A DNA stretch of 64,000 nucleotides, from the NCBI GenBank assembly GCA_021848825.1, contig JAJZTQ010000002.1, positions 5,129 to 69,128 of the forward strand, in the 5' to 3' direction. A model generated the notes under the pieces. It saw nothing but the letters and a program-made list of their open reading frames with translations. It was not told the origin of the DNA and searched no databases. The DNA is from Pseudomonadota bacterium (GTDB lineage Bacteria; Pseudomonadota; Gammaproteobacteria; Burkholderiales; JABEVD01). A program made the position numbers and the translations under genes. Of the stretch, positions 14,261 through 46,227 are shown in pieces (position 1 is the stretch's first letter; each line of letters begins with the position of its first letter).

Positions 14261-14270
14261 GATGGCTTCC

Positions 14271-14729: not shown

Positions 14730-14733
14730 TGAA

Positions 14734-16354: not shown

Positions 16355-16378
16355 ATTTTAAACCAGCTTCCCGGTCAA

Positions 16379-16405
16379 TGACAGGTTTTGTCTGCTGCTA
16401 TATTG
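16379..16405 (+). promoter_or_regulatory. possible sigma70 promoter for the ABC-ATPase/msh-like unit
   Basis: ATGACA (16379-16384), 15-nt spacer, TATATT (16400-16405), about 24 nt before the TTG 16429 start. The spacer is short, so the call is weak. Confidence 0.25.
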
Positions 16406-16428
16406 AAACAAATTGTAAGGGGGGCGGC

Positions 16429-18335: not shown

Positions 18336-18378
18336 GCTGATGCTACCTTGACCTTAGTGGCAACAGGAAAACTGAAAA

Positions 18379-22792: not shown

Positions 22793-23982
22793 CCCTCTAC
22801 GCCTACAGGGCCTTGAACCAGCAGGGAGAGGTGAGAAAAGGCGTGCTCGATGCCTTGAGCGAATCGGATCTCGAAGAGCGGCTGGAACGAATCGGCATGG
22901 AGCTCATATCGTACAGGCCGGCGCTGAAGAAGAGTTTCGGGAAAAGGGTCGGGCGGCGCGATCTGATCACCTTCTTTTTCAATCTCGAGCTGCTGACGAG
23001 GGCCGGCGTGTCCCTCGTCGAAAGCCTGACCGATATCAGGGATACCATGGATATTCCCTATTTCAGGGAAATCATCACTGAAATGATCGAAAACATAGAG
23101 GGAGGCATGCAGTTTTCCCATGCCATGTCCTTTTATCCCAGGATATTCGACACCGTCATGGTCAACCTTGTCAGGGCGGGCGAGGAGAGCGCGAAGCTGC
23201 CCGAAATATTCAGGCACCTGACGGATTCGCTCAAATGGCACGACGAAATCAGTTCCCAGACCAGGCAGATCCTGCTTTATCCGGCATTCGTCGGAACAGT
23301 CGTGATCGGCATCACTTTCTTCCTGATGACCTATCTCGTTCCGCAATTGGGCATCTTCTTCAGGAACTTCGGGCAGACCCTTCCTCCCCAGACCCGGGCG
23401 CTGATCGCGGTTTCGAATTTTTTCATTCATTACAAGTACTGGATTCTCCTGGCTCCCTTCCTGCTCTACTTCTTCCTGAAATCGGCGGGCATGCTGAGCG
23501 AGCGGGCAAGGTACTGGCTGGACAGCCTGAAAATCAGGATATGGATCATCGGTCCCATCCTGCTGAAGGTCATCCTGGCGAGATTCGCCAATACGTTCGC
23601 CATCATGTACGAATCGGGCGTGAGCATACTCGACTGCATCGCCATTTCTTCCGGCATCACCGGCAATCTGGTGATATCGAGAAAGCTTGTGCAGGCGAGG
23701 CGGGAGATAGAGGCCGGCAAGACGCTGCTGCAGAGCTTCCAGGGTTCGAACGTCTTTCCTGCCCTCGTGCTCAGGATGATCAAGGTGGGCGAGGCGACAG
23801 GAAGGGTGGACGATGCGCTCTATAACGTCAGCTATTTCTACGAAAGGGACACCCGGGAAGCCATCAGAAGAGTCCAGGTCATGATCGAGCCGGTACTGAC
23901 CGTCGTCCTGGGCTCATTGCTCGGCTGGATCATGCTTTCGGCGATCACCCCGATATACGACATGCTCGGAAAAATCAGATGA
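22789..23982 (+). CDS. mshG: type IV filament platform protein (GspF/PilC/MshG family)
   Basis: Start trimmed to ATG 22789 (MTLYAYRALNQQGE), an ATGA overlap with mshE. Duplicated GspF domain with three TM blocks. Confidence 0.85.
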   Translation: MTLYAYRALNQQGEVRKGVLDALSESDLEERLERIGMELISYRPALKKSFGKRVGRRDLITFFFNLELLTRAGVSLVESLTDIRDTMDIPYFREIITEMIENIEGGMQFSHAMSFYPRIFDTVMVNLVRAGEESAKLPEIFRHLTDSLKWHDEISSQTRQILLYPAFVGTVVIGITFFLMTYLVPQLGIFFRNFGQTLPPQTRALIAVSNFFIHYKYWILLAPFLLYFFLKSAGMLSERARYWLDSLKIRIWIIGPILLKVILARFANTFAIMYESGVSILDCIAISSGITGNLVISRKLVQARREIEAGKTLLQSFQGSNVFPALVLRMIKVGEATGRVDDALYNVSYFYERDTREAIRRVQVMIEPVLTVVLGSLLGWIMLSAITPIYDMLGKIR

Positions 23983-25433
23983 AGACGCTGAAGCTTTTCA
24001 TCGGAGACAAGGCATGCCTGGTCATGGAATGGAAAAACGGCCTGCCGGCCTGGCGGGCGGCTTTTCAGAATTCCGCAACGGGCGTGGGGCAATTCGAAGC
24101 TTATCTCGAAGGCAGGAAGCATTCGACGGCGAGCATCCTTGTCGATCTCGTCGAGGAGGATTATCGTCAGGAAAGCATTCCCCATCTCGGTCTTCTGGAC
24201 AGGAAGCATTATCTCGCGAAAAAGCTGGTCCAGTACTATCGCCATACGCCTTTCAACAGCGCCGTTTTCCAGGGCAAAGAGGGAAAAAACGACAGGGTTC
24301 TTTTTTCGGCGATGACGAGCCCGAATCTCATCCTGCCATGGGTGGAATTGCTTGCGAAAAAGCGGATTCCGTTGACGGGGATCTGTTCAGTCGCGCTGCT
24401 GAGCGAAAAGCTGATCGGCAGCATCCATGCAACCCACCTGATGCTGCTTTCCTTCCAGGAGGGAACGGGCCTGAGGCAGAGCTTCTTCCTGAACGGCCGT
24501 CTGAATTTCTCGAGGCTGACCCTGATTCGCCCCGAAGAAGATCCTCTTGCCGTTCTCCGCGTCGAGTCAGCCCGCGCCTACAATTATCTCCACGCGCTCA
24601 ATCTGCTTCCGGAAACAGGGGTGATTCCTGTTCTCGTCCTTTGTGACGAAAACGACAGCAGGAAGCTGGGCGAGATGATAGAAGACACGCCTTCGGTTCG
24701 GCATGTCTTCATCGATCCTCATGAGGCGGCGAGAAGGACGGGTTTCAGGGGGGGCATGGCGGGCTCGGATGCGCTGCCGATTTTCCTTCACCTTCAGGGG
24801 GCTGCCAACCATTACGGAAACGGGGCGCACAGGCACCTCAACGATCTGCGTCAGCTGCGCGTTGCAGCCCATTTTCTTTCCGCTTCCCTTGTCGCTGCAG
24901 GGCTGATACTTGCAGCAATAGACGCATCGATGGCGATCAGGCTTCATCGCAAAGCGGGTATTCTCGAAGCGAGGAGCGATGCGGCGATGCTTCAGTACAG
25001 GAAGCTCGTTCCTCCCGAGAGAGGGGCGGAGTCGCCGCAGAAGATGAAGGCTGCCGTCATGCTTGCCCAAATTCTTGCCGCTGCCTATCCGAAACCGGAA
25101 AACCTGCTTTCCCTGGTGAGCCGCGCGCTCGAGCCCTTTCCTACGGTTCGGATGAACAGGATCTCTTGGCAGACATCCAGGGGAAAATCGTTTGTTTCGA
25201 ATCCGGGGGAAGTGGTGATAGACATCGAAGGCGAGATCTTTCCTTTCGATGGAAACTTCAGGGCTGCCAATGAGAGCGTGGAAAATTTCTGTTCCGAACT
25301 CGGAAAAACGGGCATGACGGTACAGAAGATCAAGCTTCCCCTGAACCTGAGCCCTGGCGCCAGTCTCGTCGGAAAGACAGGGCGGGAAAAGGCGGATTTT
25401 GCCGTCAGGGCATTCTGGAAGAGGGTATCGTGA
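23979..25433 (+). CDS. GspL / PilM-PilN (MshI)-like bitopic assembly protein
   Basis: 484 aa: about 290-aa cytoplasmic domain, single TM (VAAHFLSASLVAAGLILAAI), about 170-aa periplasmic domain. Architecture and position fit. No sequence motif recognised with certainty. Confidence 0.5.
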   Translation: MKTLKLFIGDKACLVMEWKNGLPAWRAAFQNSATGVGQFEAYLEGRKHSTASILVDLVEEDYRQESIPHLGLLDRKHYLAKKLVQYYRHTPFNSAVFQGKEGKNDRVLFSAMTSPNLILPWVELLAKKRIPLTGICSVALLSEKLIGSIHATHLMLLSFQEGTGLRQSFFLNGRLNFSRLTLIRPEEDPLAVLRVESARAYNYLHALNLLPETGVIPVLVLCDENDSRKLGEMIEDTPSVRHVFIDPHEAARRTGFRGGMAGSDALPIFLHLQGAANHYGNGAHRHLNDLRQLRVAAHFLSASLVAAGLILAAIDASMAIRLHRKAGILEARSDAAMLQYRKLVPPERGAESPQKMKAAVMLAQILAAAYPKPENLLSLVSRALEPFPTVRMNRISWQTSRGKSFVSNPGEVVIDIEGEIFPFDGNFRAANESVENFCSELGKTGMTVQKIKLPLNLSPGASLVGKTGREKADFAVRAFWKRVS

Positions 25434-26008
25434 TCCTGAAGCGTGAGGATTTTCCGAGTATTGCCTTTTCGCTCGCCCTCCTGCTTTCCGCCGTATCCGC
25501 TTCATTCGCCCTTCCGTTCATCAGTCAGCGTTTCCTTCAGAGGATGGTTCTCGAAGAAGCCCGTTCCGAAAAGGCGCTGCTCGACGCGAACGAAAAAATC
25601 AGGGAAGCGGCAAGGGAGCGGGAGAGCATTTCGATTTTCAAGGCAGCCTACGGGCGGCTCGTCACGCGCGGGGTGATCGGGAATTTCGAAAGACTCGATC
25701 TCGTCGAGCATCTGGACGAAGCGGGATCGAGCGTCTTCAGCATGCAGTATTCGGTTTCTCCCCAGGAAAAAATACCCGAACCCGGTTTCTATTCCATTGA
25801 CGTCAATCGCGCGACAGTCAATCTGGATGTCCTCCACGAAGGGAAACTCCTGGATTTCCTGGATGCGCTGGAGGCGAAGTCGAGGGGACTCTTCCTTGTC
25901 GAAGGATGCGCCATGGAAAGGATCGAAGGAGAGTCGGCCATTTCTTTCGCGCCCCATCTGAAGGCAGGATGCAGCCTGATGTGGGTGACGCTGGAAGCAG
26001 TGAAATGA
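25430..26008 (+). CDS. GspM/PilO (MshJ)-like bitopic protein
   Basis: GTG start in a GTGA overlap. N-terminal TM, coiled-coil segment (EEARSEKALLDANEKIREAARERE), then a periplasmic domain. Confidence 0.45.
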   Translation: MILKREDFPSIAFSLALLLSAVSASFALPFISQRFLQRMVLEEARSEKALLDANEKIREAARERESISIFKAAYGRLVTRGVIGNFERLDLVEHLDEAGSSVFSMQYSVSPQEKIPEPGFYSIDVNRATVNLDVLHEGKLLDFLDALEAKSRGLFLVEGCAMERIEGESAISFAPHLKAGCSLMWVTLEAVK

Positions 26009-26244
26009 AGAAGCTGATCTTCCTGATGCTTTTCCTTGTTCAATCCCAATCCTTCGCCGATACGCTGGGGCGGCTTTTCTTCACGAAGCAGGAAAGGGAG
26101 GCGATGGACAGACGGAGCAGGAATCCTGGAAAGGCGACCGAAGCGAATCCGGAGGCGAGCGGAACCGTCCAGAGGAAAGACGGCGGAGAGACAGTCTGGA
26201 TCAATGGCGTTCCCCATCATGTGGAACGGGACAAGAAAAAATGA
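26005..26244 (+). CDS. small secreted protein of unknown function
   Basis: 79 aa from the internal ATG 26005 of the track ORF (ATGA overlap on both sides). Signal peptide MKKLIFLMLFLVQSQSFA, then LGRLFFTKQEREAMD. Confidence 0.5.
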   Translation: MKKLIFLMLFLVQSQSFADTLGRLFFTKQEREAMDRRSRNPGKATEANPEASGTVQRKDGGETVWINGVPHHVERDKKK

Positions 26245-27434
26245 GGGAAAAAGGAGCGGTGATCCTGCTTTTGATGACGGTCTTCCTGGCTGCAGGGACC
26301 TACCTTTTCGTCAGTTCCGTCGACATTTCGAAAAACACGGTGGAGCGCGAAAAGATAACAGCACGGGCGCTTGCTCAGGCGAAGGATGCGCTGATCGGTT
26401 TTGCGATCACCTATGCCGAAAAGCATCATGGCAATCCGGTTAACGGCTATCTGCCCTGCCCGGACATGTCCGCAACGGGCATAGGCAAAGAAGGGTCCGC
26501 TGAGGGGAGCTGCGGAGGGAAAAATGTCAGCGCGATCGGAAAACTGCCGTGGAAGACGCTCGATCTTCCGCCTCTCAGGGACGGCAGAGGGGAGTGTCTC
26601 TGGTATGCAGTTTCAGGAACATACAAGAACAATCCGGATTCCGACTTCATGGACTGGGACAATATGGGGCTCTTCCAGGTCATGGCTTCAGACGGGGTAA
26701 CCGTTCTCGCCAGTCAGGCAGTCGCCGTCGTTATTTCCCCGGGATTCGCCATGGGAAGCCAGAATCATTTGCCGGCAGTGGGTACCGCAATCTGCGGGGG
26801 AAATTACACCCCATCCAATTATCTCGACAATGATACGGTTCACAACATAAACAATGCCCTTGTTTCGCCCATAGCGAATGCAGTGACGAAGTTCATTCAG
26901 GGGGATGTCGGTAACCCGATGGTGAACGACAGGCTGATCGTGGTCACGAGGGAAGACATCTTCAATGCCCTGAAAAAGCGCAGCGATTTTTCTTCATTCG
27001 TGGAAAATTCACTGCTGAACGCCGCATCGACATGCCTTTCTACGACTTTGCCTCTGCCGATTGCAATCAATTTCGATGCCATGACCGAAACGGCAGGTTC
27101 GAGCGTCGGGGATCTGGTCACGGGGCGAGTCCCCTACTCTTCATGTACCGACATTGCGATCAGGAAATGGCGCGACAACCTGCTCTATGCGACATGTTCA
27201 TCGGGAACCGCCTGTCTGAAGGTGAACAGTTCGGCTTGCAGGGGGATCCTGATCTTCGCAGGAGAAAGGACGGCTTTGCAAAGCAGAGCGACCAATGCCC
27301 AGAAGAACGACTGGAGAAATTATCTGGAAGGAGACGTTTACACCGCTTTTTCTGCCGGATCCGATACGTTCAACGGTGCTTCAGCCTATTCCAACGTTTC
27401 GCCTTCCACCGACATATTGGCATGCGTACCATGA
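26241..27434 (+). CDS. large pilin-like/PilX-like protein lacking a canonical prepilin cleavage motif
   Basis: N-terminal MREKGAVILLLMTVFLAAG hydrophobic segment. Shares the KDALIGFA...LPCPD...GSC...LPWKTL...YAVS region with the downstream prepilin. Confidence 0.55.
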   Translation: MREKGAVILLLMTVFLAAGTYLFVSSVDISKNTVEREKITARALAQAKDALIGFAITYAEKHHGNPVNGYLPCPDMSATGIGKEGSAEGSCGGKNVSAIGKLPWKTLDLPPLRDGRGECLWYAVSGTYKNNPDSDFMDWDNMGLFQVMASDGVTVLASQAVAVVISPGFAMGSQNHLPAVGTAICGGNYTPSNYLDNDTVHNINNALVSPIANAVTKFIQGDVGNPMVNDRLIVVTREDIFNALKKRSDFSSFVENSLLNAASTCLSTTLPLPIAINFDAMTETAGSSVGDLVTGRVPYSSCTDIAIRKWRDNLLYATCSSGTACLKVNSSACRGILIFAGERTALQSRATNAQKNDWRNYLEGDVYTAFSAGSDTFNGASAYSNVSPSTDILACVP

Positions 27435-28120
27435 AAAAAGGATTCACGCTGGTCGAAATCGCAGTCGTTCTGGCAATAATTGCCCTTCTCGTCGGCGGCA
27501 TGCTGATCCCGATTTCCGCCCAGATAGAAGAGCAGAAGATCATGGATACGCAGGATTCCATCGATCTGGTCAAGGAGGCGTTGATCGGATATGCGGTCGT
27601 CAACAAGCATCTTCCCTGCCCCGACAAGACTGTGCCAACAGGCGCCGGTACTGCGAACGACGGTCTCGAGGATGCGGCAGCAAGCGGTTCCTGCGTAAGT
27701 CAGGAGGGCAATATTCCCTGGGTCACTTTGGGCGTCTCGGGGCTGGATGCATGGGGTAACCGCATCCATTACAGCGTGACACCCGCTTTTTCGAATTCTC
27801 TCGCCAAATTCACGCTCCACTCGACCGGTACATTGCGGATATGTCAGACGTCGACCTGCGCAAACGTAGTGGCCAATGAAATTCCCGCCGTCGTCCTTTC
27901 CTATGGAAAGAATGGCTTCGGCGCGATCAACAGTGCCGGGCACGCCAATGTTTTACCGACGAGCGCAGACGAATTGGCCAATACCGACGGGAACCTCGAT
28001 TTTGTAAGCCGTACCGGCACTCCTTCCGCAGCCGCTTCGGGGCAGTTCGACGACATCGTCGACTGGGTCTCCCCCTATGTGCTCTTCGATCGAATGGTTT
28101 CGGCAGGGGTCTTGCCTTGA
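27431..28120 (+). CDS. prepilin-type minor pilin/pseudopilin
   Basis: MKKG/FTLVEIAVVLAIIALLVGG N-methylation motif. Start trimmed to ATG 27431 (ATGA overlap). Confidence 0.8.
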   Translation: MKKGFTLVEIAVVLAIIALLVGGMLIPISAQIEEQKIMDTQDSIDLVKEALIGYAVVNKHLPCPDKTVPTGAGTANDGLEDAAASGSCVSQEGNIPWVTLGVSGLDAWGNRIHYSVTPAFSNSLAKFTLHSTGTLRICQTSTCANVVANEIPAVVLSYGKNGFGAINSAGHANVLPTSADELANTDGNLDFVSRTGTPSAAASGQFDDIVDWVSPYVLFDRMVSAGVLP

Positions 28121-28872
28121 AGACGATCGCAAGATATACGCTGCTCGAAGCGCTCAGGAACAAAATGCTCTGGCTGATTCTGCCGATTCTTCTCCTCGGC
28201 CTTTCCTTTTCGCATTTTCTTCAGCGGACAGCCATCACCGAGAGCAGCGAGATCCAGGCGGGCTCCCTTGCCTTGATGGAGAGGACAGGGGCGGTGTTCG
28301 TCATGGTTTCCTTTGTCGTGGGGGGCATCTCAAGGGAGTACCAGGAAAAGGGGATGGAATTCTTCCTCGCCTTGCCGATGGGCAGGACCAGCTATCTTTT
28401 CGGCAAGCTTCTGGGATATGCATGCTGTTCGCTCCTGCTTGCCATTCTTTTCACCTTGCCGTTCTTCCTGAGCAACTCGCCTGTCTCGGCTTCGATCTGG
28501 GGCATTTCGCTCTTTCTCGAACTCGCTTTGATGAGTTGTGTGAGCCTCTTTTTCTCGATATCGCTGACCCAGATGCCCCTGGCGCTCGCGGCGGTTTCAG
28601 GCTTCTACCTGCTTTCACGCTCGATGGGGGCGATCATGCTGATCATGAAGGGCCCTCTCGCGGTTCACGGATTCTTGGAGGATATCGCCGACAGGGCGAT
28701 TTCGCTTGTCTCCTTCGTTCTCCCTTCGCTCGACGATTTCACCAGGACCGGATGGATCCTCTATCAGGAAACCAAATGGCAGGTTCTCCTGCCTGTTCTC
28801 GTCCAGACTGCGATTTACCTCTTGCTGATCTCCGCTGCAGCGCTCTTCGACTTCGAGAGGAGGGAAATCTGA
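28117..28872 (+). CDS. ABC-2 family (NosY/GldF-like) permease
   Basis: TTG start in a TTGA overlap with the pilin stop. IARYTLLEALRNKMLW and REYQEKGMEFFLALPMGRTSYLFGKLLG motifs typical of ABC-2 permeases. Six hydrophobic helices. Confidence 0.65.
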   Translation: MKTIARYTLLEALRNKMLWLILPILLLGLSFSHFLQRTAITESSEIQAGSLALMERTGAVFVMVSFVVGGISREYQEKGMEFFLALPMGRTSYLFGKLLGYACCSLLLAILFTLPFFLSNSPVSASIWGISLFLELALMSCVSLFFSISLTQMPLALAAVSGFYLLSRSMGAIMLIMKGPLAVHGFLEDIADRAISLVSFVLPSLDDFTRTGWILYQETKWQVLLPVLVQTAIYLLLISAAALFDFERREI

Positions 28873-28886
28873 ACGCGTCATGGCAG

Positions 28887-29567
28887 GTGAAATGGGTCTT
28901 GATGATTTCGCTGATTCTTCAGATTGTCTGGCACGCCTTTCGGTCAGACGAAAGTCCTGCTGCGCAAAAGCTTCATGATCCGCCTTCGCCCACGGATCTG
29001 AGGCTCGCGTCTTTCGGCGAATCCGAGATGGCCTCGAGATTCATGATGCTCTATCTGCAGTCATTCGACAGCCAGCCCGGAATCGTCATCCCTTACCGGG
29101 ATCTGGACTATCGGCGGGTCAAGAAATGGCTGAAGACGAGCCTGATCCTCGATGAAAGGGATCAATATCCGCTCTTTGCCGCAGCCGGCCTCTATCTCGG
29201 CGTGGAAGACGACAGCAGGAAAAGGATCATGCTCGATTTCATCTACAGGGCATTCGTGAAAAACCCGGAAGAAAGATGGCAATGGCTGGCAAGGGGGATA
29301 TGGGTTGCAAAATACCAGCTTCACGATCTTCCCCTTGCCCTTCGATATGCGGAGGCGCTCGCCGGACGCAGGACCTCGAAGATGCCCGACTGGGTGAGCG
29401 AAATGCAGGTTTTCATCCTGAATGACATGAACAAAATCGATAGTGAAAGGATATTGATTGGCGCCCTTCTTGCCAATGGCAAGATACTAGACCAGAACGA
29501 GAAGTATCTTCTCGAGAGGGAGCTCGCCAGGATAGGGAGGCAAAAAAAATCCGGCGTGCTATGGTGA
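28887..29567 (+). CDS. membrane-anchored hypothetical protein
   Basis: 3' half of the 496-aa track ORF. Start placed at GTG 28887 (ATG 28902 is an alternative), giving an N-terminal anchor KWVLMISLILQIVW. No family recognised. Confidence 0.45.
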   Translation: MKWVLMISLILQIVWHAFRSDESPAAQKLHDPPSPTDLRLASFGESEMASRFMMLYLQSFDSQPGIVIPYRDLDYRRVKKWLKTSLILDERDQYPLFAAAGLYLGVEDDSRKRIMLDFIYRAFVKNPEERWQWLARGIWVAKYQLHDLPLALRYAEALAGRRTSKMPDWVSEMQVFILNDMNKIDSERILIGALLANGKILDQNEKYLLERELARIGRQKKSGVLW

Positions 29568-29596
29568 ATCAAACAAACCTTTTGGAGCGGCAAATC

Positions 29597-30244
29597 ATGG
29601 AAAAAGAAACCGGTTTCACATTGGTCGAGATAGCCATCGTGCTGGTCATCATAGGGCTGATTCTTGCTGCGGTATTGAAGGGGCAGGAAATGATCACCCA
29701 GGGCAAGATCAAGGGCATCATCAACGATTTCAACGCAGTCTTGACCGCCTACAATGGCTACCAGGACAGGTACAAGGCGATTCCGGGGGATGATCCCAAT
29801 TCGGGGGCGAGGTGGACCACGCTGGGGGTAAGCGGAAACGGCAATGGCACGGTCGACGGAGAATACAACGACGCAACTGGCGGAACTTCGGAAGCGACCT
29901 ATTTCTGGGCAGATCTGAAATTCGCCAATTTCTTTCCGGGATTGACCGACACTGCAGCCCACGCCGAGGCCCAGCCTTCGAATTCAGTCGGAGGGATCAT
30001 AGGGGTTCAGAACAATGCGCTGGGGATGTCGGGGCTCTCGATCTGCATGTCGGCGGTGGTATACAAGATTGCGCAATCCGTGGACACGCAGATCGACGAC
30101 GGCAATGCGATGACAGGTTCGGTTCGCGCAACCGTTCAGACCGCTGGCGCCACGCTCGCCCAGTTGCCTGACCTGACGGGAGGGGCTCCGGCAGCCAATT
30201 ACGTTGACGGCAGCACCTACGTCATATGCCGCTCCATTCCCTGA
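29597..30244 (+). CDS. type IV pilin (candidate major subunit, copy 1)
   Basis: MEKETG/FTLVEIAIVLVIIGLILAAVLKGQEMITQGKIK prepilin motif. C-terminal Cys pair (SICMS...VICRS). Start trimmed to ATG 29597. Confidence 0.85.
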   Translation: MEKETGFTLVEIAIVLVIIGLILAAVLKGQEMITQGKIKGIINDFNAVLTAYNGYQDRYKAIPGDDPNSGARWTTLGVSGNGNGTVDGEYNDATGGTSEATYFWADLKFANFFPGLTDTAAHAEAQPSNSVGGIIGVQNNALGMSGLSICMSAVVYKIAQSVDTQIDDGNAMTGSVRATVQTAGATLAQLPDLTGGAPAANYVDGSTYVICRSIP

Positions 30245-30254
30245 GGAAATTGGC

Positions 30255-30950
30255 GTGAAAGGGGGGCAGTCGGGCTTCACGCTGGTCGAGATCGCGATCG
30301 TTCTCGTGATCATCGGCCTTCTGATAGGCGGCGTGCTCAAGGGCCAGGAAATGATCACCCAGGGCAGGATCAAGAGCGCGATCATCGATTTTTCCGGCAT
30401 CAGTGCCGCCTATTACGCCTACATAGACCGATACAAGGCGCTGCCCGGAGACGACAGCCAGGCCACAGCCAGATGGGGCGCGGCAATTCTTCCCAACAAT
30501 GCAGTCGGCAACGGCGACGGCGTGATCAGCGGACCCTACTATCAGACGGCGGTAGGCACCGGCGCTACAAACGAGACGGCAGACTTCTGGTCCCACCTCA
30601 GGGCGGCAGGGCTCGTGACCGGAAACAGTCTCGCCAATCCGGTCACGCTTCCCATCAATTCTTCCGGCGGCATCATCGGGGTGCAGACCGGCAATGGCGC
30701 TGCGGCACCCGGGGAGGTGCTGCTGACAGCCGGCGCAGGCACGGGACTCATCGGTTTCATGATCTGCTCGACCCGGCTTCCGGACAGGGTCGCAGCGGCA
30801 GTGGATGTACAGCTGGACAACGGCAGTCCGAATTCAGGCAGCATCCGCGCCTGGCAATCAGGGGGCGCCCAGGATCCTGTTCCTGCGGCGCCCGCAGGTC
30901 CGCCCTATTCCGACAACGGCACCGCAATGTCGATATGCAGGGCGCTCTAG
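30255..30950 (+). CDS. type IV pilin (copy 2, tandem paralog)
   Basis: GTG 30255 after GAGGAA. VKGGQSG/FTLVEIAIVLVIIGLLIGGVLKGQEMITQGRIK. C-terminal Cys pair (MICST...SICRA). Confidence 0.85.
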   Translation: MKGGQSGFTLVEIAIVLVIIGLLIGGVLKGQEMITQGRIKSAIIDFSGISAAYYAYIDRYKALPGDDSQATARWGAAILPNNAVGNGDGVISGPYYQTAVGTGATNETADFWSHLRAAGLVTGNSLANPVTLPINSSGGIIGVQTGNGAAAPGEVLLTAGAGTGLIGFMICSTRLPDRVAAAVDVQLDNGSPNSGSIRAWQSGGAQDPVPAAPAGPPYSDNGTAMSICRAL

Positions 30951-31005
30951 TCTGCTGACCATTGGAGATTCAGGAAGCACGTATTCAATCAAGAGGAGGT
31001 CGTCC

Positions 31006-32571
31006 ATGTTTCGAAAATTGCATGTTTTCGCAGCCCTGTTCGCCGTTTTCTCAACCGCCGCCAATGCCGCGGCCTTTGCCCCGATCGTGCCGGTCAACCC
31101 GGACAACACCTTCCAGGTGGTCGATGTCCAGGCTATCGTCAAGGCGCTTCCCCCGGGGCAGCGCTGGATCACCCATGTCAAGGAAGACCTGCTGAAATTC
31201 TGGGGCATGCCGACTGCGCTTGGCAATCCGCTGGGCGACTTTCCCACCTACCGCTGCGACGACGGAAGCCTCTACGACAAGTCCCATCCCTGTCCGGAGC
31301 TCGAGCATGCCGATCCGGGCATCGTCAAGCTGGACCGCGACTACACCCGCGCAAAGAGCCGCCAGGTCTATGGCTACGGCGTCGCCTACCAGCTGACGGG
31401 CGAAGAGAAGTATCTGCGCTATGCCGTGGCCGGCGCAGACTGGCTGATGAAGCACGCCCTCGACGCCAACGGGGCGGCGAGTTGGTTCAAGGACGGCAAG
31501 CCGCAGCCGCCCGACCTGCAGCGCACCAGCCAGGACATGGCCTATGCGGTCTCGGGCATCGCCTTCCTTTACTACCTCACCCATGACGAACGCTATCTGA
31601 ATGCAGTGATCGCGCTCAAGAGCCACATCTTCAACACCTACTTCGACCCCCAGTGGGGCCTGCTGCGCTGGGTGATGGCGCCGGATCAGGACGGCGACAA
31701 GCCCGATCAGAAAGAGCTGGTTTCCCAGCTCGACCAGGTTTACGGCTACCTCCTCTGGACCACCATGGCGCTGCCCAAGGGAAAGCTCAAGCGTCAATGG
31801 ACGAAGGATCTGCATCATCTCGCGGCAGCCATGCGAGACCAGTTCTTCGGCGAAACATACGGCCTCTACTGGGGGGCGATCACGGACATGGAGCACCGCA
31901 ATCTCGCCAACTACAAGGGAGAGGAAAGTCCGCATACCGACTTCGGTCACTCCATCAAGACCCTGTGGCTCACCTATCGCATCGGCATGCTGACCGATGA
32001 CATGTCCCTGGTCAACTTTGCGCGCCCGAACATGTACACTATCCTCGACCGCGCCTACATTCCGAAGACGGGCTCCTGGGCTCGGGGCTTCAAGCCTGTC
32101 GGAGACGGGAGCGGGCGCTGGACGCTGGATCCAGACAAGGAATGGTGGAGCCTGGCGGAGCTCGACCAGGCCGCCGCTACGCTGGCACTGGTGGACCCGG
32201 TCTTCGCCCGGGTTCTTCCGCACACCTATGACTACTGGTTCAGGTACATGGTGGACCACAAGCACGGCGATGTATGGCACATGGTGCGCGCAAAGGACAA
32301 CAAGCCCGATCTCTCCTTTCCCAAGCAGCATTCCTGGAAGAACGCCTTCCACGTTTTCGAGCATGCCCTGGTCGGCTATGTCACGGCCCAGCAGCTTCAC
32401 GACCAGCCGATCACCCTGCATTACGCCTTCAAGGGCAGCGTGGCGGATGACACCATCCATCCCTACCTCTATTTCGGCGAGGTCGTGAAGCGACAGACGC
32501 TTGGGCATTTCAGCGATCCCGCGCTGAAAAACTATACCCCTAGCGAAGTCACCTTCAATTCTCTTCACTGA
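31006..32571 (+). CDS. secreted (alpha/alpha)6-barrel protein, N-acylglucosamine 2-epimerase (AGE)/glycoside-hydrolase-like superfamily
   Basis: Start trimmed to ATG 31006 after AAGAGGAGG. Signal peptide MFRKLHVFAALFAVFSTAANA. YGYGVAYQLTGEEKYLRYAVAGADWL, QDMAYAVSGIAFLYYLT, QLDQVYGYLLW and WNAFHVFEHALV resemble AGE-family repeats. Confidence 0.5.
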   Translation: MFRKLHVFAALFAVFSTAANAAAFAPIVPVNPDNTFQVVDVQAIVKALPPGQRWITHVKEDLLKFWGMPTALGNPLGDFPTYRCDDGSLYDKSHPCPELEHADPGIVKLDRDYTRAKSRQVYGYGVAYQLTGEEKYLRYAVAGADWLMKHALDANGAASWFKDGKPQPPDLQRTSQDMAYAVSGIAFLYYLTHDERYLNAVIALKSHIFNTYFDPQWGLLRWVMAPDQDGDKPDQKELVSQLDQVYGYLLWTTMALPKGKLKRQWTKDLHHLAAAMRDQFFGETYGLYWGAITDMEHRNLANYKGEESPHTDFGHSIKTLWLTYRIGMLTDDMSLVNFARPNMYTILDRAYIPKTGSWARGFKPVGDGSGRWTLDPDKEWWSLAELDQAAATLALVDPVFARVLPHTYDYWFRYMVDHKHGDVWHMVRAKDNKPDLSFPKQHSWKNAFHVFEHALVGYVTAQQLHDQPITLHYAFKGSVADDTIHPYLYFGEVVKRQTLGHFSDPALKNYTPSEVTFNSLH

Positions 32572-32583
32572 AGAGCACAGATC

Positions 32584-33966
32584 GTGAAAAAATTGTTCCT
32601 GACCTTTCTGCTGCTCTTCCTGAGTGCCCCTGCCTGGGGGCAGCCGCTTGAGCGCCCTGCGGCCATGGCCCCGCTGGTTGTCAGCGACTGGTCTTCCTTC
32701 GAGGACCTGCTTCGTCATGCGAAGTCTGTCGGCATCACAGCGATCAGCACCGATGTCTGGTGGGGCAAGGTGGAGGGGGCAGGGGAGCAGAAATTCGACT
32801 GGCGCTACTACGACGAGGTGAGCCGCGCCATCATGAATGCTGGGCTGAAATGGGTGCCGATCATGTCATTCCACCAGTGCGGCGGCAATGTCGGCGACGA
32901 TTGCGACATCCCCATTCCCGCCTGGATCTGGTGCCGGCTCGACTGCAAGGATCCGGACAGGCTGAAGTACAGGAGCGAAAACGGAAACGAGTCGAGCGAG
33001 GTGATCGCGCTCTGGGCGGACGATCTGGCGCGCAAAGAGTATATGGAATTCATCACCGCTTTTCGCGACCACTTCCGAAATCTGGCGGGAGAGATCGCGG
33101 AAATCAATATCGGCACAGGCCCGAGCGGGGAGCTGCGCTATCCTTCCTACAACAACCATGACCACTGGACCTACCCGGGCCGCGGTTTCCTCCAGGCATA
33201 CAGCGAACCGGCAAAGGATGATTTCCGCCGCTTCGTGCGCGACAAATACCAGACGCTGGAGCGGGTCAACCAGGCATGGCACACGAGTCTTACGGACTGG
33301 AGCGAGGTGCTTCCTCCCTCCAATGCCGACGGATTTTTCAGCAGGCAGGATGATCTGAAAATCCAGTACGGCAAGGACTTCACCGACTGGTACAACGGCG
33401 CGCTGGTGAAGCATGGCCGCTTCATGATCAATCTCGCCCGGGAGGCTCTCGGAGACGCTTTCAAGGGCGTCCCGATCGGCATCAAGATTCCGGGCGTACA
33501 CTGGCAGATGAATTCCCCTGCCATGCCCCGCGCTGCCGAAGTGACCGCTGGCCTCATCCCCACAAGCATCGATATCGCGAGCGAAGAAACGGCGCACGGC
33601 TACGCCCCCATCCTCGACATGGTGAAGCAGGCATCGAGCCATGGTCACCCGCTTGTCCTGCATTTCACCTGCCTCGAGATGGACGACCAGCCGAATGCGC
33701 CGGACTATTCCCTGGCGAAGGACCTGGTTTTCTGGATAGCAAAGGGCGCACAGCGGACAGGCGTCACGGTCATGGGTGAAAACGCCCTGAGCAGCGGGGT
33801 CACAAGCGACCATGGCTGGGACAACATCGACAACGCCATCCGCTGGAGCAGCTACGTCGGCTTCACCGCCTTGCGCCTGAAGGATCTCACTGCCAACGAT
33901 GACCTCGGCTTCCAGCGCTACAGGCGCCTGATCGACGAATTCAAACCGCAAGGAGCAATGCCATGA
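32584..33966 (+). CDS. beta-amylase, glycoside hydrolase family 14, catalytic domain only
   Basis: Signal peptide MKKLFLTFLLLFLSAPAWG. GH14 signatures DVWWGKVE, MSFHQCGGNVGDDCDIPIPAW, catalytic-Glu contexts GPSGELRYPSY and VMGENAL. Confidence 0.85.
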   Translation: MKKLFLTFLLLFLSAPAWGQPLERPAAMAPLVVSDWSSFEDLLRHAKSVGITAISTDVWWGKVEGAGEQKFDWRYYDEVSRAIMNAGLKWVPIMSFHQCGGNVGDDCDIPIPAWIWCRLDCKDPDRLKYRSENGNESSEVIALWADDLARKEYMEFITAFRDHFRNLAGEIAEINIGTGPSGELRYPSYNNHDHWTYPGRGFLQAYSEPAKDDFRRFVRDKYQTLERVNQAWHTSLTDWSEVLPPSNADGFFSRQDDLKIQYGKDFTDWYNGALVKHGRFMINLAREALGDAFKGVPIGIKIPGVHWQMNSPAMPRAAEVTAGLIPTSIDIASEETAHGYAPILDMVKQASSHGHPLVLHFTCLEMDDQPNAPDYSLAKDLVFWIAKGAQRTGVTVMGENALSSGVTSDHGWDNIDNAIRWSSYVGFTALRLKDLTANDDLGFQRYRRLIDEFKPQGAMP

Positions 33967-34598
33967 ACCAATCGTTGAAGGGAAAAAGGGTCGCCCTGCT
34001 GCTCGAGACCGAATACATCTTCGATGAGCTGCTCTATTACAGGCAGCAGGTGGAGATGATGGGCGGCGAGCTGGATCTGCTCACCTGCCTCTGGGGCGAG
34101 CCGAGCAAGATCTTCGTCAACGACTGCGACGCCTGGGACCGGCCGATTACCAGCATGCATGCCATCACTGTAGACAAGTGCGTCACCCAGGTGCGTGCCG
34201 ACGAGTACGACATCGTGCTCTGCGCCGCCAACTATGTCGCCGTGCGCCTGCGGGAGATCCCGCCCATGGGGAGCTTGGGGTCGCCCTCCGAGGTCAACGC
34301 AGCGCCAGCGGTGAAGTTCTTCGCCGATGCCATGAGGAATCCGGGCATCGTCAAGGGCGCGCTCTGCCACGCCCTCTGGATCCTCACCCCCAACCCCCAT
34401 CTGCTCAAGGGGCGCCGCGTCATCTGCCACACCGTGGTGCTGGCCGACGTCATCAATGCAGGCGCCGTCTTCGTCCCGGCAGAAAGCCATGTGGTGGTCG
34501 ACCGGGACCTGGTCACCGGCCGGTCTTTTGCCGACGTCGAGGCCTACTGGAAGGCGATCGTGGAGACGGCTGCAAGGATAAACGGGAGTTCGGCGTGA
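33963..34598 (+). CDS. DJ-1/PfpI family (class I glutamine amidotransferase-like) protein
   Basis: ATGA overlap with the beta-amylase stop. KRVALLL N-terminus, nucleophile-elbow-like GALCHALWIL, VVDRDLVTG. Confidence 0.6.
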   Translation: MNQSLKGKRVALLLETEYIFDELLYYRQQVEMMGGELDLLTCLWGEPSKIFVNDCDAWDRPITSMHAITVDKCVTQVRADEYDIVLCAANYVAVRLREIPPMGSLGSPSEVNAAPAVKFFADAMRNPGIVKGALCHALWILTPNPHLLKGRRVICHTVVLADVINAGAVFVPAESHVVVDRDLVTGRSFADVEAYWKAIVETAARINGSSA

Positions 34599-34603
34599 CG
34601 AGG

Positions 34604-35485
34604 CTAAAGCTGACGCGCCTGATCGACAAAAGCCTTCAGGTAATCGACATCGACGTCCGCTACGCGCGCCCCCAGGAAGATCTGCTTGGCGATACCGCAT
34701 CGTCCCAGACGAACCGGAACGACATCCATTTTGCCTAGATATTCTTCGGCCAGCCAGCGAGGCAAGGCGGCGACCCCTCTTCCGCTGGCCACCATTTGCA
34801 GCATGATTTCGGTCGTTTCGATGACCTTGTGGCGCCTCGGGCTGATGCCTGCAGGCATCAGGAACCGATTGTAGATATCGAGGCGTTCAATCTCGACCGG
34901 ATAGGTGATCAGCACTTCTTCGGCGAGCTGTTCAGGTTCCACATAAGGGGCTTGAGCCAATGGATGCTCGCGAGAGGTCACCAGGACCTGCTCGTAGTCG
35001 AACACCGGCTCGAAGTGCAAACCGGGCTTGTACAGGGGGTCCGGCGTCACCAGAAGATCGATCTCGTAGGCGAACAGCGCACCTATGCCCCCGAACTGGA
35101 ATTTCTGCTTGACGTCGACATCCACGTCGGGCCAGCGGGCAAGGTAAGGCGAAACCACCTTGAGCAGCCACTGGTAGCAGGGATGGCATTCCATGCCGAT
35201 GCAGAGCGTGCCGCGCTCCCCTTTCGCATACTGCTTCAGGCGTTCTTCGGCCCTTTCCATCTGGGGCAGCAGCCGCTCGGCGAGCGCAAGCAGGTATTTT
35301 CCTGCCTGGGTCAATCTGAGCCTTCTCCCTTCGCGCAGCCAGATATCCGTGCCCATCTTCTGCTCGAGCTTTCTCATCGCATGGCTCAAGGCAGACTGCG
35401 TGAGGCACAGGACATCGGCTGCTGCAGTCAGCGAGCCCTGTTTTTCGACTTCCCTGACAATGGAAAGATGGATCTTCTCGAGCAT
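34604..35485 (-). CDS. metR: LysR-family transcriptional activator MetR
   Basis: HTH SLTAAADVLCLTQSALSHAMRKLE. Divergent from metE, with TGAA-N5-TTCA boxes in the shared intergenic region. Confidence 0.85.
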   Translation of the reverse strand: MLEKIHLSIVREVEKQGSLTAAADVLCLTQSALSHAMRKLEQKMGTDIWLREGRRLRLTQAGKYLLALAERLLPQMERAEERLKQYAKGERGTLCIGMECHPCYQWLLKVVSPYLARWPDVDVDVKQKFQFGGIGALFAYEIDLLVTPDPLYKPGLHFEPVFDYEQVLVTSREHPLAQAPYVEPEQLAEEVLITYPVEIERLDIYNRFLMPAGISPRRHKVIETTEIMLQMVASGRGVAALPRWLAEEYLGKMDVVPVRLGRCGIAKQIFLGARVADVDVDYLKAFVDQARQL

Positions 35486-35543: not shown

Positions 35544-35588
35544 AAAAAGCCTACCATGGCTGCATATATCAGGAAACAAGGAAAAAAC

Positions 35589-37901
35589 ATGGTTACAACG
35601 CACAACCTCGGCTTTCCGCGCATGGGCGCGATGCGCGAACTGAAGTTCGCCCTGGAATCCTACTGGAAAGGCCGGTCGTCAAGAGACGAACTGAACGCGC
35701 TCGGGGCGCAGCTTCGCAGCCAGCACTGGCAGGCGCAATCCGGGCTGGATTGGGCGCCAGTTGGCGACTTTGCGTTCTACGACCAGGTGCTGGACATGAG
35801 CTTCACCCTGGGCAACCTGCCCAAGCGCGCCCGCGGCTACCTGGGCGATCCGCTCGACAACAGCTTTCGAGTGGCGCGCGGCCGTTCCGTTCAGGATGGA
35901 GAAGGGCACGGGGCCTGTTGCGGCGGCATGACCGCGGGCGAGATGACGAAGTGGTTCGACACCAACTACCACTACATCGTCCCTGAATTCGAGGCCGATA
36001 CCGAATTCAATCTCGATCCCTCGCGCCTTCTCGATCAGCTCGCCGAAGCCAAGGCTCAGGGTGTGAAGCCCAAGCCCGTCATCATCGGCCCGCTCACCTA
36101 TCTCTGGCTGGGAAAATCGAAGGATGGCAAGGACAGGATCAGTCTGCTCGAGCGTCTGCTTCCCGTCTACTCGGCACTTTTGGAGAAATTGGCCCAGGAG
36201 GGCGTCGAATGGGTGCAGATGGACGAGCCTGTGCTTGTCACCGAGCTCGAACCCGAATGGCGACATGCCTTCAACCTGGCTTATCATCATCTCAAGAGCA
36301 GCAGGATCAAGCTTCTTCTTTCGACCTATTTCGGCGCCCTGCAGGAAAACCTTTATCTTGCCTGCAATCTGCCTGTTGCCGGCATTCATCTCGATGCAAT
36401 CAATGCGGGCGAAGAAATCGGGATGCTGATCGACCTGCTGCCTGCTCACAAGGTGGTCTCTCTGGGCGTCATCAACGGGCGCAACATCTGGAAGAGCGAT
36501 CTCAACGCCACGCTCGACTGGCTCGAGCCGCTCGCGGAGCGGCTGGGGAGTCGGCTCTGGATTGCGCCGTCCTGCTCCCTGCTGCATGTTCCGGTCGATC
36601 TCGAAAGCGAACAGCAACTCGATGCCGAGATCAGATCCTGGCTCGCCTTCGCCGTGCAGAAACTCGAAGAGCTGAACATCCTCGCAACCGCATTGAATCA
36701 TGGCCGGGCGGCGGTTGCCCGGGATTTGGCGGCGAACCAGGCTGCTATCGCAAGCCGCCTTGCTTCGCCGCGAGTCACCAATCCTTTCGTCAAGGCGGCG
36801 ATCGCCGCCATCACGCCTGAACTCGGGCTGCGCAAGAGCCCCTATCCGGTTCGTGCAGACAAGCAGGCCGCCCTGCTCAAGTTGCCGCTCTTTCCGACCA
36901 CCACCATCGGTTCCTTTCCGCAGACTATCGAAATAAGGCAGGCGCGCAGCAGGTTCAAGGCGGGGGAAATCGACGATGCAGCCTATATCGCCGCCATGAA
37001 GGGCGAGATCGAGCGCAGCGTGCGGGAGCAGGAGGCGCTTGGGCTGGACGTCCTGGTTCACGGGGAGGCGGAGCGCAACGACATGGTCGAGTATTTCGGC
37101 GAGCAGCTCGATGGCTACGCCTTCAGCCAGTTCGGCTGGGTGCAGTCCTACGGCTCGCGCTGCGTCAAGCCGCCCATCCTGTATGGCGACATCAGCCGCC
37201 CTGGTGCGATGACGGTCGAATGGATCAGGTATGCCCAGTCGCTGACCGAGAAGCCGATGAAAGGCATGCTGACAGGGCCGGTGACCATCCTCAACTGGTC
37301 TTTCGTGCGCGACGATCAGCCCAGATCGGTTTCCTGCTTTCAGCTAGCACTGGCGATCCGCGAGGAAGTGCGGGATCTGGAGAAGGCGGGCATACGCCTG
37401 ATCCAGATTGACGAGGCTGCATTGCGCGAAGGCCTGCCGCTGCGCAAGTCGCAATGGAAAGCCTATCTCGACTGGGCGGTGGAATCCTTCCGGATCGCCG
37501 CAAACGGCGTGAAGGATGAAACGCAGATCCACACCCACATGTGCTATTCGGAATTCAACGACATTCTCCCGGCCATCGCCGCCATGGATGCCGATGTCAT
37601 CACCATAGAGACTTCGCGTTCCGACATGGAGCTGCTCGACGCCTTCGACGACTTCAGGTATCCGAACGAGATCGGCCCTGGCGTCTACGACATCCACTCG
37701 CCAAACATTCCTACAGAGGAACATATTGTCCACTTGATGAAGAAGGCCGCAGAGCGAATTCCTGCGGAACGTCTTTGGGTGAATCCCGACTGCGGCCTGA
37801 AGACCCGCCAGTGGGCCGAGGTCGTCCCGGCGCTGACCAACATGGTCGCTGCGGCCAAAGCATTGCGTTGCAAATCCGCAGCCCTGACTTCGGCAGATTG
37901 A
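35589..37901 (+). CDS. metE: cobalamin-independent methionine synthase
   Basis: Start trimmed to ATG 35589 ([13 protein letters not shown]). 770 aa. C-terminal Zn-site region HTHMCYSEF...NPDCGLKTR. Confidence 0.96.
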
Positions 37902-45759: not shown

Positions 45760-46227
45760 ATGAATCTGATTGCCAGGCTGCTCTCTCCCGAATATGTCCT
45801 GATGGATCTGGAAGCCGGGAGCAAGAAGCGGGTTTTCGAACAGGTCGGGCTATTGTTCGAGAACGGTCTTGGCATTGCAAGAAGCGAGGTTTTCGACAGC
45901 CTTTTCGGCAGGGAAAGGCTGGGTTCAACCGGACTCGGGCAGGGGGTGGCGATCCCGCATGGCAGGATAAAGGGGCTGAGGGAGGCGGCTGGGGCTTTCG
46001 TCAAGCTGTCCACCCCGATTCCCTTCGATGCCCCCGACTCGAAGCCCGTCTGCCTGATATTCGTGCTGCTCGTTCCCGAGCGTGCAACCGACCTGCATCT
46101 GCAGATCCTCGGGGAGCTCGCGCAGATGTTCAGCGACAAGCATTTCAGGGAAAGCCTGATGAATGCATCGAGACCCGCCGAAGTCGTCGGCCTGATCGCC
46201 GAATGGAAACCCCATGCCGCAGATTAG
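45760..46227 (+). CDS. ptsN: nitrogen-PTS enzyme IIA (EIIA-Ntr)
   Basis: GLGQGVAIPHGR active-site His region, 155 aa. Confidence 0.9.
   Translation: MNLIARLLSPEYVLMDLEAGSKKRVFEQVGLLFENGLGIARSEVFDSLFGRERLGSTGLGQGVAIPHGRIKGLREAAGAFVKLSTPIPFDAPDSKPVCLIFVLLVPERATDLHLQILGELAQMFSDKHFRESLMNASRPAEVVGLIAEWKPHAAD

Follow-up and report, generated by a model that had tools for sequence, protein, structure and literature searches.

A three-gene module joining a GH14 beta-amylase, an AGE-fold barrel protein and a PfpI-like protein downstream of an MSHA-type pilus cluster

Results

We analyzed a stretch of 64,000 nucleotides from a proteobacterial contig (JAJZTQ010000002.1), hereafter called the window. 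Three consecutive genes on its plus strand encode an (alpha/alpha)6-barrel protein of the AGE superfamily (31006-32571), a GH14 beta-amylase (32584-33966), and a DJ-1/PfpI-type protein (33963-34598), and they directly follow a cluster of genes for an MSHA-type type IV pilus. Distant lineages carry this gene set as a unit as well, with little or no change in gene order and with flanking genes that are unrelated. The conserved core is the AGE-fold barrel gene together with the PfpI-like gene, a pair that recurs across many phyla. We consider it rather likely that the stretch is a self-contained, horizontally shared module for alpha-glucan processing, and that its position beside the MSHA pilus operon is peculiar to this species.

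Occurrence of the module in other genomes

At locus L005, an identical barrel-GH14-DJ-1 triad is located among genes for oxidoreductases and toxin-antitoxin systems. The GH14 protein of this locus is the closest homolog of the window enzyme (79% identity), and the barrel and DJ-1-like proteins are 87% and 84% identical, respectively. The triad was also present at L087, between genes unrelated to the window flanks, in Thiodiazotropha (L007 and L008), Desulfuromonadaceae (L009), Reinekea (L011), and Opitutaceae (L012), at L010 and L088, and in the complete genome of an isolate, Teredinibacter sp. KSP-S5-2 (L128; CP120416.1, triad at approximately 481-487 kb). The nearest named carriers of the module to the window are Sulfuricellaceae and Thiodiazotropha.

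In 44 of 83 loci, the barrel gene has a close DJ-1 homolog as its neighbor; these loci are derived from Proteobacteria, Cyanobacteria, Verrucomicrobiota, Clostridia, Fibrobacterota, Fusobacteriota, and contigs binned as archaeal. Across these loci, identity ranges from 53 to 87% for the DJ-1-like protein and from 37 to 88% for the barrel. L129 and L130 contain the pair by itself, as a two-gene unit. At L130, L045, and L030, the neighbors of the pair are of archaeal type (CDC48, FilR1, and DUF1699) or the contig was binned as Methanothrix or 'Sifarchaeum', and transposase genes adjoin the pair at L130.

Genes for alpha-glucan-active enzymes were found within 6 kb of the barrel gene in approximately 30 of the 83 loci, many of which are truncated contigs. 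GH14 is encoded in 11 of the 83, and additionally in L128. An exported GH13 alpha-amylase is encoded near the barrel in 16 loci, mostly cyanobacterial, an isoamylase in L014 and L015, and a pullulanase-type enzyme in L033 and L046. At L010, a gene for a 1080-aa fusion of GH14 with a GH13/pullulanase-like region (12483-15725) is placed just after the barrel and DJ-1 genes. An apparent cluster of cyanobacterial 'GH14' neighbors was rejected as an artefact of single-linkage clustering; its genes encode isoamylase or pullulanase-type GH13 enzymes.

A different set of neighbors was observed at L069, L078, L083, L086, L042, and L088, which come from Clostridia, a Nostocaceae metagenome-assembled genome (MAG), and a proteobacterial-type contig. 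Here, the pair is accompanied by a thiamine diphosphate (ThDP) enzyme resembling benzoylformate decarboxylase. An EthD-like gene is present at all of these loci but L088, which also carries a ThiJ-like gene, and a muconolactone-isomerase-like gene is present at the four Clostridia loci. Such neighbors are compatible with 2-oxo or dicarbonyl chemistry, which we take only as a lead.

The module is patchily distributed over Proteobacteria, Desulfobacterota, Verrucomicrobiota, and one Chloroflexota MAG, a taxonomic breadth that MAG binning errors could inflate, with identities of 60-88%. Its flanks are unrelated, and many of them abound in genes for defence, toxin-antitoxin systems, or transposases. 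This patchy multi-phylum spread at 60-88% identity, together with the unrelated flanks, argues for horizontal spread of the whole module. The initial annotation had suggested that the amylase might have been acquired horizontally; the distribution makes such a transfer plausible, though for the three-gene module as a whole and not for the amylase alone. The annotation had also called for a comparison of codon usage with the core genes. The GC content at third codon positions is 0.78-0.86 in the module versus 0.62-0.80 in the other window genes, which places the module at the high end of the window range but inside it, and the relative synonymous codon usage distances of the module genes fall within the window range; neither measure gives a sign of recent transfer. 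Inspection for insertion scars around the module yielded only short chance repeats and no tRNA or integrase gene, and the window as a whole contains no tRNA gene. Because compositional and structural scars are missing, any acquisition would not be recent.

The GH14 beta-amylase

The GH14 protein consists of 460 amino acids, is translated from a GTG codon, and comprises the catalytic domain only. It matched Pfam family PF01373 at 408.8 bits (cutoff 27) over residues 32-437, and residues 25-441 were aligned with the beta-amylase structures 3VOC (E=1e-98) and 1B90 (E=4e-94). The protein ends where the catalytic domains of 3VOC and 1B90 end, indicating that it has no C-terminal CBM20. Of the conserved motifs, SFHQCGGNVGD begins at residue 95, GELRYPSY at residue 182, and MGENAL at residue 397. 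The first of them, which is identical in the aligned PDB sequences, includes the flexible loop HQCGGNVGD at residues 97-105. The catalytic residues Glu183 (33130-33132, in GELRYPSY) and Glu399 (33778-33780, in GENAL) align with the motifs of the 1B90-type enzymes and 3VOC. In the numbering of the Bacillus cereus beta-amylase, we take the general acid of GELRYPSY to be Glu172 and the general base of GENAL to be Glu367. The window protein is a straightforward member of GH14 and is predicted to release maltose. Pfam, the PDB alignments, and the motifs agree in this with the initial annotation, which had recognized a GH14 enzyme with both catalytic-glutamate contexts and no starch-binding module.

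All of the 31 closest GH14 homologs, with identities of at least 52%, have lengths of 428-484 aa, too short to contain a CBM20. A barrel or DJ-1 partner was apparently co-located for 24 of the 31, as judged by a proxy, namely a barrel or DJ-1 match on a contig of equal length; co-location was read directly in 11 loci. By the same proxy, none of the more distant GH14 matches (P0048-P0120) has a co-located barrel or DJ-1 gene, and many of these are CBM20-bearing proteins of 500-675 aa.

The AGE-fold barrel protein

The 521-aa barrel protein was not assigned to a family by profile searches. In Pfam, it gave only sub-threshold matches to GH88 (20.2 bits) and GH76 (18.9 bits) and no match to PF07221, and no NCBIfam model matched. 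Some homologs passed the PF07221 cutoff of 23.4 bits, P0444 with 46.8 bits and P0189 with 40.6 bits. We built an AlphaFold2 (AF2) model of the barrel on 25 homologs, and obtained a predicted local distance difference test score (pLDDT) of 88.6 and a predicted template modeling (TM) score of 0.88. In a Foldseek search of the PDB with this model, the top 39 structures were all AGE-superfamily epimerases and isomerases (E=1e-13 to 1e-9), including GlcNAc 2-epimerase, cellobiose and glucose 2-epimerases, mannose isomerase, and YihS. The TM scores relative to the target were approximately 0.8 at a sequence identity of 14-18%. GH76, GH88, and GH105 structures ranked far lower, with TM scores of 0.44-0.49 relative to the query. 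The earlier description of the protein as an AGE-like (alpha/alpha)6 barrel is borne out by the model and its 39 AGE matches. The family comprises approximately 240 clusters at 50% identity (E<=1e-30).

Residue equivalences were obtained by aligning the family profile with solved cellobiose and glucose 2-epimerases (5ZHB, 3VW5, 5ZIG, and 8H1K). His315 (31948-31950) was aligned with the histidine of the GHDIE motif, and Trp444 and His449 (32350-32352) were aligned with the WKxxYH motif; both histidines are candidate catalytic residues. Arg119 was aligned with the arginine of the 'RQ' motif and Trp380/381 with the 'WW' motif. None of these residues varies among the 81 intact family members that were aligned. 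Two further invariant features depart from the AGE pattern, each assigned with moderate confidence on a low-identity alignment. Lys318 occupies the position of the GHDIE glutamate, three residues after the first catalytic histidine, and Q241-L-D243 lies at the H-x-H helix of 8H1K, where the third conserved histidine is replaced. The barrel also has the invariant carboxylates E237, D243, D312, E379, D417, and E452.

Several homologs carry additional domains. An N-terminal CBM20 is fused to the barrel in P0173 and P0189, and one homolog has a WD40 propeller; the other extra regions matched no Pfam family. A subclade of Anaerolineae/Chloroflexi type (L049, L050, L052, L055, L056, L060, L062, L065, and L061) differs by the substitutions R115V, D177E, E237R, H310G/S, and H442W. 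Its members are lipoproteins encoded beside a SBP_bac_1/DUF3502 sugar-binding protein and ATP-binding cassette (ABC) transporter genes, with no DJ-1 partner. Among loci with complete flanks, a DJ-1-type neighbor was found in 0 of 5 of this subclade versus 35 of 51 for the canonical barrels.

The DJ-1/PfpI-like protein

The third gene encodes a protein of 211 amino acids, which matched PF01965 at 46.2 bits (cutoff 26.6). Its AF2 model (pLDDT 86.2) matched 2VRN, 1G2I, 4Y0N, and 1OI4, the PfpI/YhbO/DR1199/SAV1875 branch, with TM scores of 0.81-0.87. This fold match and the Pfam hit uphold the initial assignment as DJ-1/PfpI-like. The protein did not reach the NCBIfam cutoffs for PfpI (TIGR01382, 58.2 versus 139.05 bits) and deglycase PfpI (NF040823, 32.1 versus 330 bits). 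The nucleophile-elbow Cys135-His136 (34365-34370) and Glu15/Glu17 are invariant in 26 diverse homologs, and Cys135 was aligned with the corresponding cysteine of 2VRN and 1OI4. A second invariant pair, Cys155-His156, and an invariant loop, RLREIPPMGS at residues 95-104, which was modeled at low confidence, also characterize the family. The PfpI-like protein represents a distinct and tightly conserved subfamily below the NCBIfam cutoffs.

The stretch at residues 92-105, RLREIPPMGSLGS, forms a loop that ranks with the best conserved parts of the family, yet its pLDDT in the AF2 model is below 50. The loop may serve as an interface or lid and become ordered only upon oligomerization or ligand binding. 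A second DJ-1/PfpI-type protein, 28-34% identical and starting with ...KIAxLIESHYD, is encoded downstream of the barrel gene at L016, L027, L034, L037, L038, L039, L043, and L048, whose hosts are Competibacter, Rhodospirillaceae, Nostoc, Cylindrospermum, Calothrix, and Okeania.

Predicted localization of the three proteins

Signal peptides of the window proteins were assigned by eye and with a hydrophobicity scan, and the N-termini of homologs were compared. The barrel has a Sec-type signal peptide, MFRKLHVFAALFAVFSTAANA (31006-31068), with predicted cleavage after ANA, so that the mature protein would begin with A. The GH14 protein likewise has a Sec-type signal peptide, MKKLFLTFLLLFLSAPAWG (32584-32640), with predicted cleavage after AWG and a mature protein beginning with Q. 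Both signal peptides had been noted in the initial annotation and were recovered here. Signal-peptide-type N-termini were found in all module-linked GH14 homologs, and in none of the inspected homologs of the DJ-1-like protein, which is predicted to be cytoplasmic.

AGE-family enzymes are normally cytoplasmic, a point of the initial annotation that proved a useful cue. Barrel homologs from diderm lineages possess signal peptides or lipoboxes, and most homologs from Clostridia and Fibrobacterota, with a few others, have no N-terminal signal. We conclude from the N-termini that the barrel family is indeed exported in diderm bacteria. The N-terminal extension of the window barrel contains Cys84 (31255-31257) and Cys96 (31291-31293). 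Among the homologs, 51 have both a signal and the cysteine pair, 3 only the signal, 2 only the cysteine pair, and 23 neither (Fisher p=1.4e-14). In barrels without a signal, Cys84 and Cys96 are replaced by Thr/Ser/Ala and Pro. Such co-occurrence with the signal peptide is the pattern expected for a disulfide in truly extracytoplasmic forms, and Cys84 and Cys96 probably form one.

Gene junctions and module boundaries

We read the junctions directly from the sequence, using the list and translations of the open reading frames (ORFs) of the 64-kb window. The last pilin gene stops at 30950, and the ATG codon of the barrel gene follows after a spacer of 55 nt (30951-31005) that includes an AGGAGG ribosome-binding site at 30994-30999. 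The barrel stop codon is separated from the GTG codon of GH14 by 12 nt, and the GH14 stop and DJ-1 start codons overlap in ATGA. The ORFs, the 55-nt gap, and the ATGA overlap thus agree with the initial annotation. A crude scan of the plus strand of the pilin-barrel gap for two signal types, sigma-70-like promoters and intrinsic terminators, detected neither pattern. As no terminator-like site is present, read-through from the pilin genes is physically possible. The downstream boundary of the module is formed by a convergent gene for a MetR-like LysR regulator on the minus strand (34604-35485), whose stop codon is 5 nt from that of the DJ-1 gene, and metE lies beyond it (35556-37901).

The neighboring pilus cluster

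The pilus cluster (17130-30950, plus strand) provides the context of the module and lies outside it. It encodes a MshM-like AAA ATPase, a MshL secretin, a TPR protein, a MshE ATPase, a GspF/PilC-like (T2SSF) platform protein, and prepilin-type pilins, at least three of which carry the N_methyl prepilin motif. The secretin passed the MshL equivalog cutoff (TIGR02519, 260.8 versus 250.2 bits), and the ATPase contains a MshE-type c-di-GMP-binding domain (NF053729, 57.2 versus 38 bits). These two results justify the label 'MSHA-like' that the cluster had been given. None of the Gsp equivalog cutoffs was reached (GspD, 155.6 versus 351; GspE, 500.4 versus 630; GspF, 279.3 versus 424; GspG, 21-31 versus 88.9 bits), and the 64-kb window contains no canonical type II secretion system.

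Between the platform gene and the pilin genes, the plus strand encodes proteins of 484 aa (23979-25433), 192 aa (25430-26008), and 397 aa (26241-27434), which matched no Pfam or NCBIfam family, and a 79-aa ORF. The order of these four is conserved in 37 related pilus clusters (e.g., L094, L098, L101, L105, and L109). Two components are unusual for an MSHA cluster: an ABC-transporter ATPase gene (16378-17148, plus strand) that overlaps the start of the MshM-like gene, and a gene for an ABC-2-type membrane protein among the pilin genes (approximately 28165-28872, plus strand; weak Pfam match in L001).

We examined the linkage between module and pilus in both directions. In the forward direction, the barrel-family alignment was scanned against one genome per species, giving 80 loci, none of them from the window's own species, and all pilus proteins of the window were compared with these loci by tblastn. 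No homolog of the secretin, platform protein, or pilins was found in the 80 loci, and a T2SSE-type ATPase, 31-33% identical, was located within 10 kb in only two of them. At L005, L087, L088, and L128, which were inspected in addition, the module or barrel gene has no adjoining pilus or secretion genes. In the reverse direction, the cluster-specific 397-aa protein was used as a probe, and 37 metagenome loci sharing the pilus gene order of the window were recovered. Homologs of the barrel, GH14, and DJ-1 were found in 0 of the 37. The downstream sequence covers 8 kb or more in 12 of these; the corresponding distance to the module in the window is 3.6 kb. The module adjoins the pilus cluster only in the species of the window, from which L001-L004 are 100% identical copies in other samples.

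Elsewhere in the window, a second ATPase of T2SSE/MshEN type with an N-terminal GAF domain (792 aa, 55010-57388, plus strand) adjoins bcsB and a PilZ-containing bcsA cellulose synthase gene on the minus strand (57390-59519 and 59537-62224). A gene for HPr kinase/phosphorylase (46214-47146, plus strand) is situated in an rpoN-rapZ neighborhood with kdsD/C and lptCAB, which points to a proteobacterial regulatory phosphotransferase system.

Discussion

We infer the biochemical role of the barrel/PfpI pair from sequences and structural models, and under our favored interpretation, a self-contained alpha-glucan-processing module, the three proteins would act as follows. The Sec system would export GH14 and the barrel to the periplasm. 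GH14 would cleave maltose from soluble maltodextrins or glycogen; its lack of a carbohydrate-binding module fits an action on soluble dextrins. The barrel would bind the resulting di- or oligosaccharide in a cradle like that of cellobiose 2-epimerase (Arg119, Trp380/381, and Trp444), and the acid-base pair His315/His449 would deprotonate and reprotonate the reducing-end sugar in an epimerization, an aldose-ketose isomerization, or a derived reaction. The replacement of the glutamate by Lys318 and of the third histidine by Gln241/Asp243 suggests a product that probably differs from the one expected of a textbook 2-epimerase. The PfpI-like enzyme, which we place in the cytoplasm because it always lacks a signal peptide and has kept its Cys-His/Glu apparatus, would act there, either on the product once it is imported or on a by-product with a reactive carbonyl. 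In its most explicit form, this would amount to an undescribed two-compartment route for the reducing ends of alpha-glucans. From the reducing-end glucose of maltose or maltodextrins, which a co-encoded beta- or alpha-amylase would release, the barrel would form a keto, epimeric, or elimination product; an enzymatic version of alkaline 'peeling' is one possibility. The PfpI-like enzyme, joined in some lineages by the benzoylformate-decarboxylase-like ThDP enzyme, would then metabolize or detoxify the reactive carbonyl compound inside the cell. We regard a route of this precise kind as doubtful.

Several observations weigh against reading the stretch as an alpha-glucan module with a functionally coupled core. 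The gene pair is not universal, as 16 of the 51 canonical-barrel loci with complete flanks have no DJ-1-type neighbor. Most Clostridia-type barrels are cytoplasmic and are encoded beside the benzoylformate-decarboxylase-like ThDP enzyme and EthD-like genes instead of amylases, and the substrate of the barrel and PfpI-like proteins may not be strictly alpha-glucan-derived. The evidence for a functional link between the two proteins is the adjacency of their genes. A complex of the two was considered and set aside for diderms, in which the barrel is exported and the PfpI-like protein is not; as the compartments differ, direct contact is unlikely there. A full-text search of the literature found no characterized member of either the barrel family or the PfpI-like subfamily, and nothing on their pairing. 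The residue equivalences of the barrel are profile alignments at 14-18% identity and not structural superpositions, the Fisher test of signal against cysteine pair ignores phylogeny, and the co-location of GH14 with barrel and DJ-1 matches is a proxy. Finally, co-transcription of the module with the pilin genes is possible.

The barrel might instead be a new glycoside hydrolase or lyase on a six-hairpin fold that attacks alpha-glucans directly, for example at branch points or limit dextrins. We find this considerably less likely than a sugar-converting role, but several features of the barrel speak for it: the protein is exported, fused to CBM20 in P0173 and P0189, and encoded by amylase and debranching-enzyme genes; invariant Lys318 and Gln241/Asp243 replace the AGE glutamate and third histidine; many additional carboxylates (E237, D243, D312, E379, D417, and E452) are invariant; and the weak Pfam matches GH88 and GH76 belong to the same clan. 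Against it, both AGE catalytic histidines, the arginine, and the tryptophan cradle are invariant across the family, the 39 best structural matches are all AGE proteins while GH76, GH88, and GH105 reach only 0.44-0.49, and the cytoplasmic Clostridia members have no amylase neighbors. A further possibility is that the pair is a general system for carbonyl stress, glycation repair, or sugar salvage with no specific tie to starch, to which amylases were secondarily recruited in some lineages. Only about 30 of 83 loci have an alpha-glucan enzyme within 6 kb. The pair also occurs alone in L129 and L130, or with the ThDP enzyme and EthD- and muconolactone-isomerase-like proteins, and the PfpI/YhbO/DR1199 branch, to which the window protein belongs by fold, is known for stress-response, deglycase, and glyoxalase activities. 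However, chance can hardly account for four classes of alpha-glucan enzymes and CBM20 fusions accompanying the barrel again and again across unrelated phyla, and an exported barrel makes little sense for cytoplasmic repair, which renders this explanation improbable.

The initial annotation had proposed that the MSHA-like machine may be a dedicated secreton for the alpha-glucan enzymes, by analogy with the Klebsiella Pul type II secreton, in which pulA adjoins the secretion genes. The pilus would then move periplasmic GH14 and barrel across the outer membrane. In favor of this, the module and the last pilin gene share a strand and are separated by 55 nt in which no terminator-like site was detected. 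Sec signal peptides would bring the two enzymes no farther than the periplasm of a diderm cell, from which another step would be needed for release, and no canonical type II system is encoded in the window. Moreover, some type IV pilus systems export soluble proteins, such as TcpF via the TCP of Vibrio cholerae. MSHA pili are not known to take part in protein export. The comparative evidence is against the proposal: the module lacks adjoining pilus or secretion genes in the other lineages examined (the 80 genome loci, L005, L087, L088, and L128), and it is absent from all 37 related pilus clusters, 12 of which extend at least 8 kb downstream. With the linkage missing in both directions, the comparative support behind the Pul-pulA analogy is removed. 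In addition, the cluster is of MshL/MshE type and below every Gsp equivalog cutoff, a GH14 enzyme without a starch-binding module suits the periplasm and soluble dextrins, and the product of the third module gene stays in the cytoplasm. A species-specific co-option of the pilus machine as an exporter is possible, but the pilus is probably not the secretion machine of the module. The link between pilus and enzymes appears to be an accident of gene order, and we consider a dedicated secreton very improbable.

Taken singly, beta-amylases, AGE epimerases, and PfpI proteins are familiar; what the comparison adds is a compact, multi-phylum module that unites them. It pairs an exported and apparently re-tooled AGE-fold enzyme with a highly conserved PfpI-like enzyme, by genes for beta-amylase, alpha-amylase, isoamylase, or pullulanase. 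Should the barrel catalyze a new reaction on sugars derived from starch, microbial degradation of alpha-glucans would include an extra step, and PfpI/DJ-1-type proteins, which as a rule have no concrete metabolic setting, would gain one. Direct tests of the module are feasible, with Teredinibacter sp. KSP-S5-2 as a cultured carrier and with proteins that are small and soluble.

Comparison with known systems

The locus resembles Klebsiella Pul in that a starch-active exoenzyme is encoded next to a secretin, a GspE-like ATPase, a GspF-like platform, and pilin-like proteins. It differs in that the machine is of MSHA type and not Gsp type, the linkage is conserved in neither direction, and the module includes a cytoplasmic protein. 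With the MSHA system of V. cholerae, the cluster shares the MshL-equivalog secretin, the MshE-type ATPase with a c-di-GMP-binding N-terminus, the MshM-like ATPase, the TPR and platform proteins, and prepilins. Unlike that system, its gene order is M-L-N-E-G followed by the four conserved family-less proteins, and it has genes for an ABC ATPase and an ABC-2-like membrane protein embedded among the others.

The window GH14 aligns end to end with the (beta/alpha)8 catalytic domains of the B. cereus and Paenibacillus polymyxa beta-amylases (1B90 and 3VOC, E=1e-94 to 1e-98), and has in common with these enzymes both catalytic glutamates, the HQCGGNVGD loop, and a Sec signal peptide. In contrast to them, it lacks the C-terminal CBM20, contains short insertions around residues 326-350, and belongs to a CBM-less clade linked to barrel and PfpI genes. 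Its host is a diderm of proteobacterial type, unlike Bacillus and Paenibacillus, and the signal peptide would deliver the enzyme only to the periplasm. The PfpI-like protein shares with the PfpI/YhbO/DR1199/SAV1875 branch a flavodoxin-like fold, the nucleophile-elbow Cys-His, an N-terminal glutamate, and a predicted cytoplasmic location, whereas its identity to these proteins is 22-25% and its additional invariant loop, second Cys155-His156 pair, and tight link to the barrel gene set it apart.

The barrel protein has the (alpha/alpha)6 barrel of cellobiose 2-epimerase and the AGE superfamily (3WKF, 5ZHB, 6F04, and 8H1L; YihS, 2ZBL; TM approximately 0.8), and shares with them the 'GH' histidine (H315), the Trp and His of WKxxxH (W444 and H449), the 'RQ' arginine (R119), and 'WW' (W380/381). 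Unlike the AGE enzymes, it is predicted to be exported, carries the Cys84/Cys96 pair, has no PF07221 match, and is extended by approximately 70 aa at the N-terminus and by a beta-sheet at the C-terminus. It has Lys318 in place of the GHDIE glutamate and Gln241/Asp243 in place of the H-x-H helix residues, and its genomic partners are amylases and the PfpI-like gene rather than mannan or sialic-acid genes.

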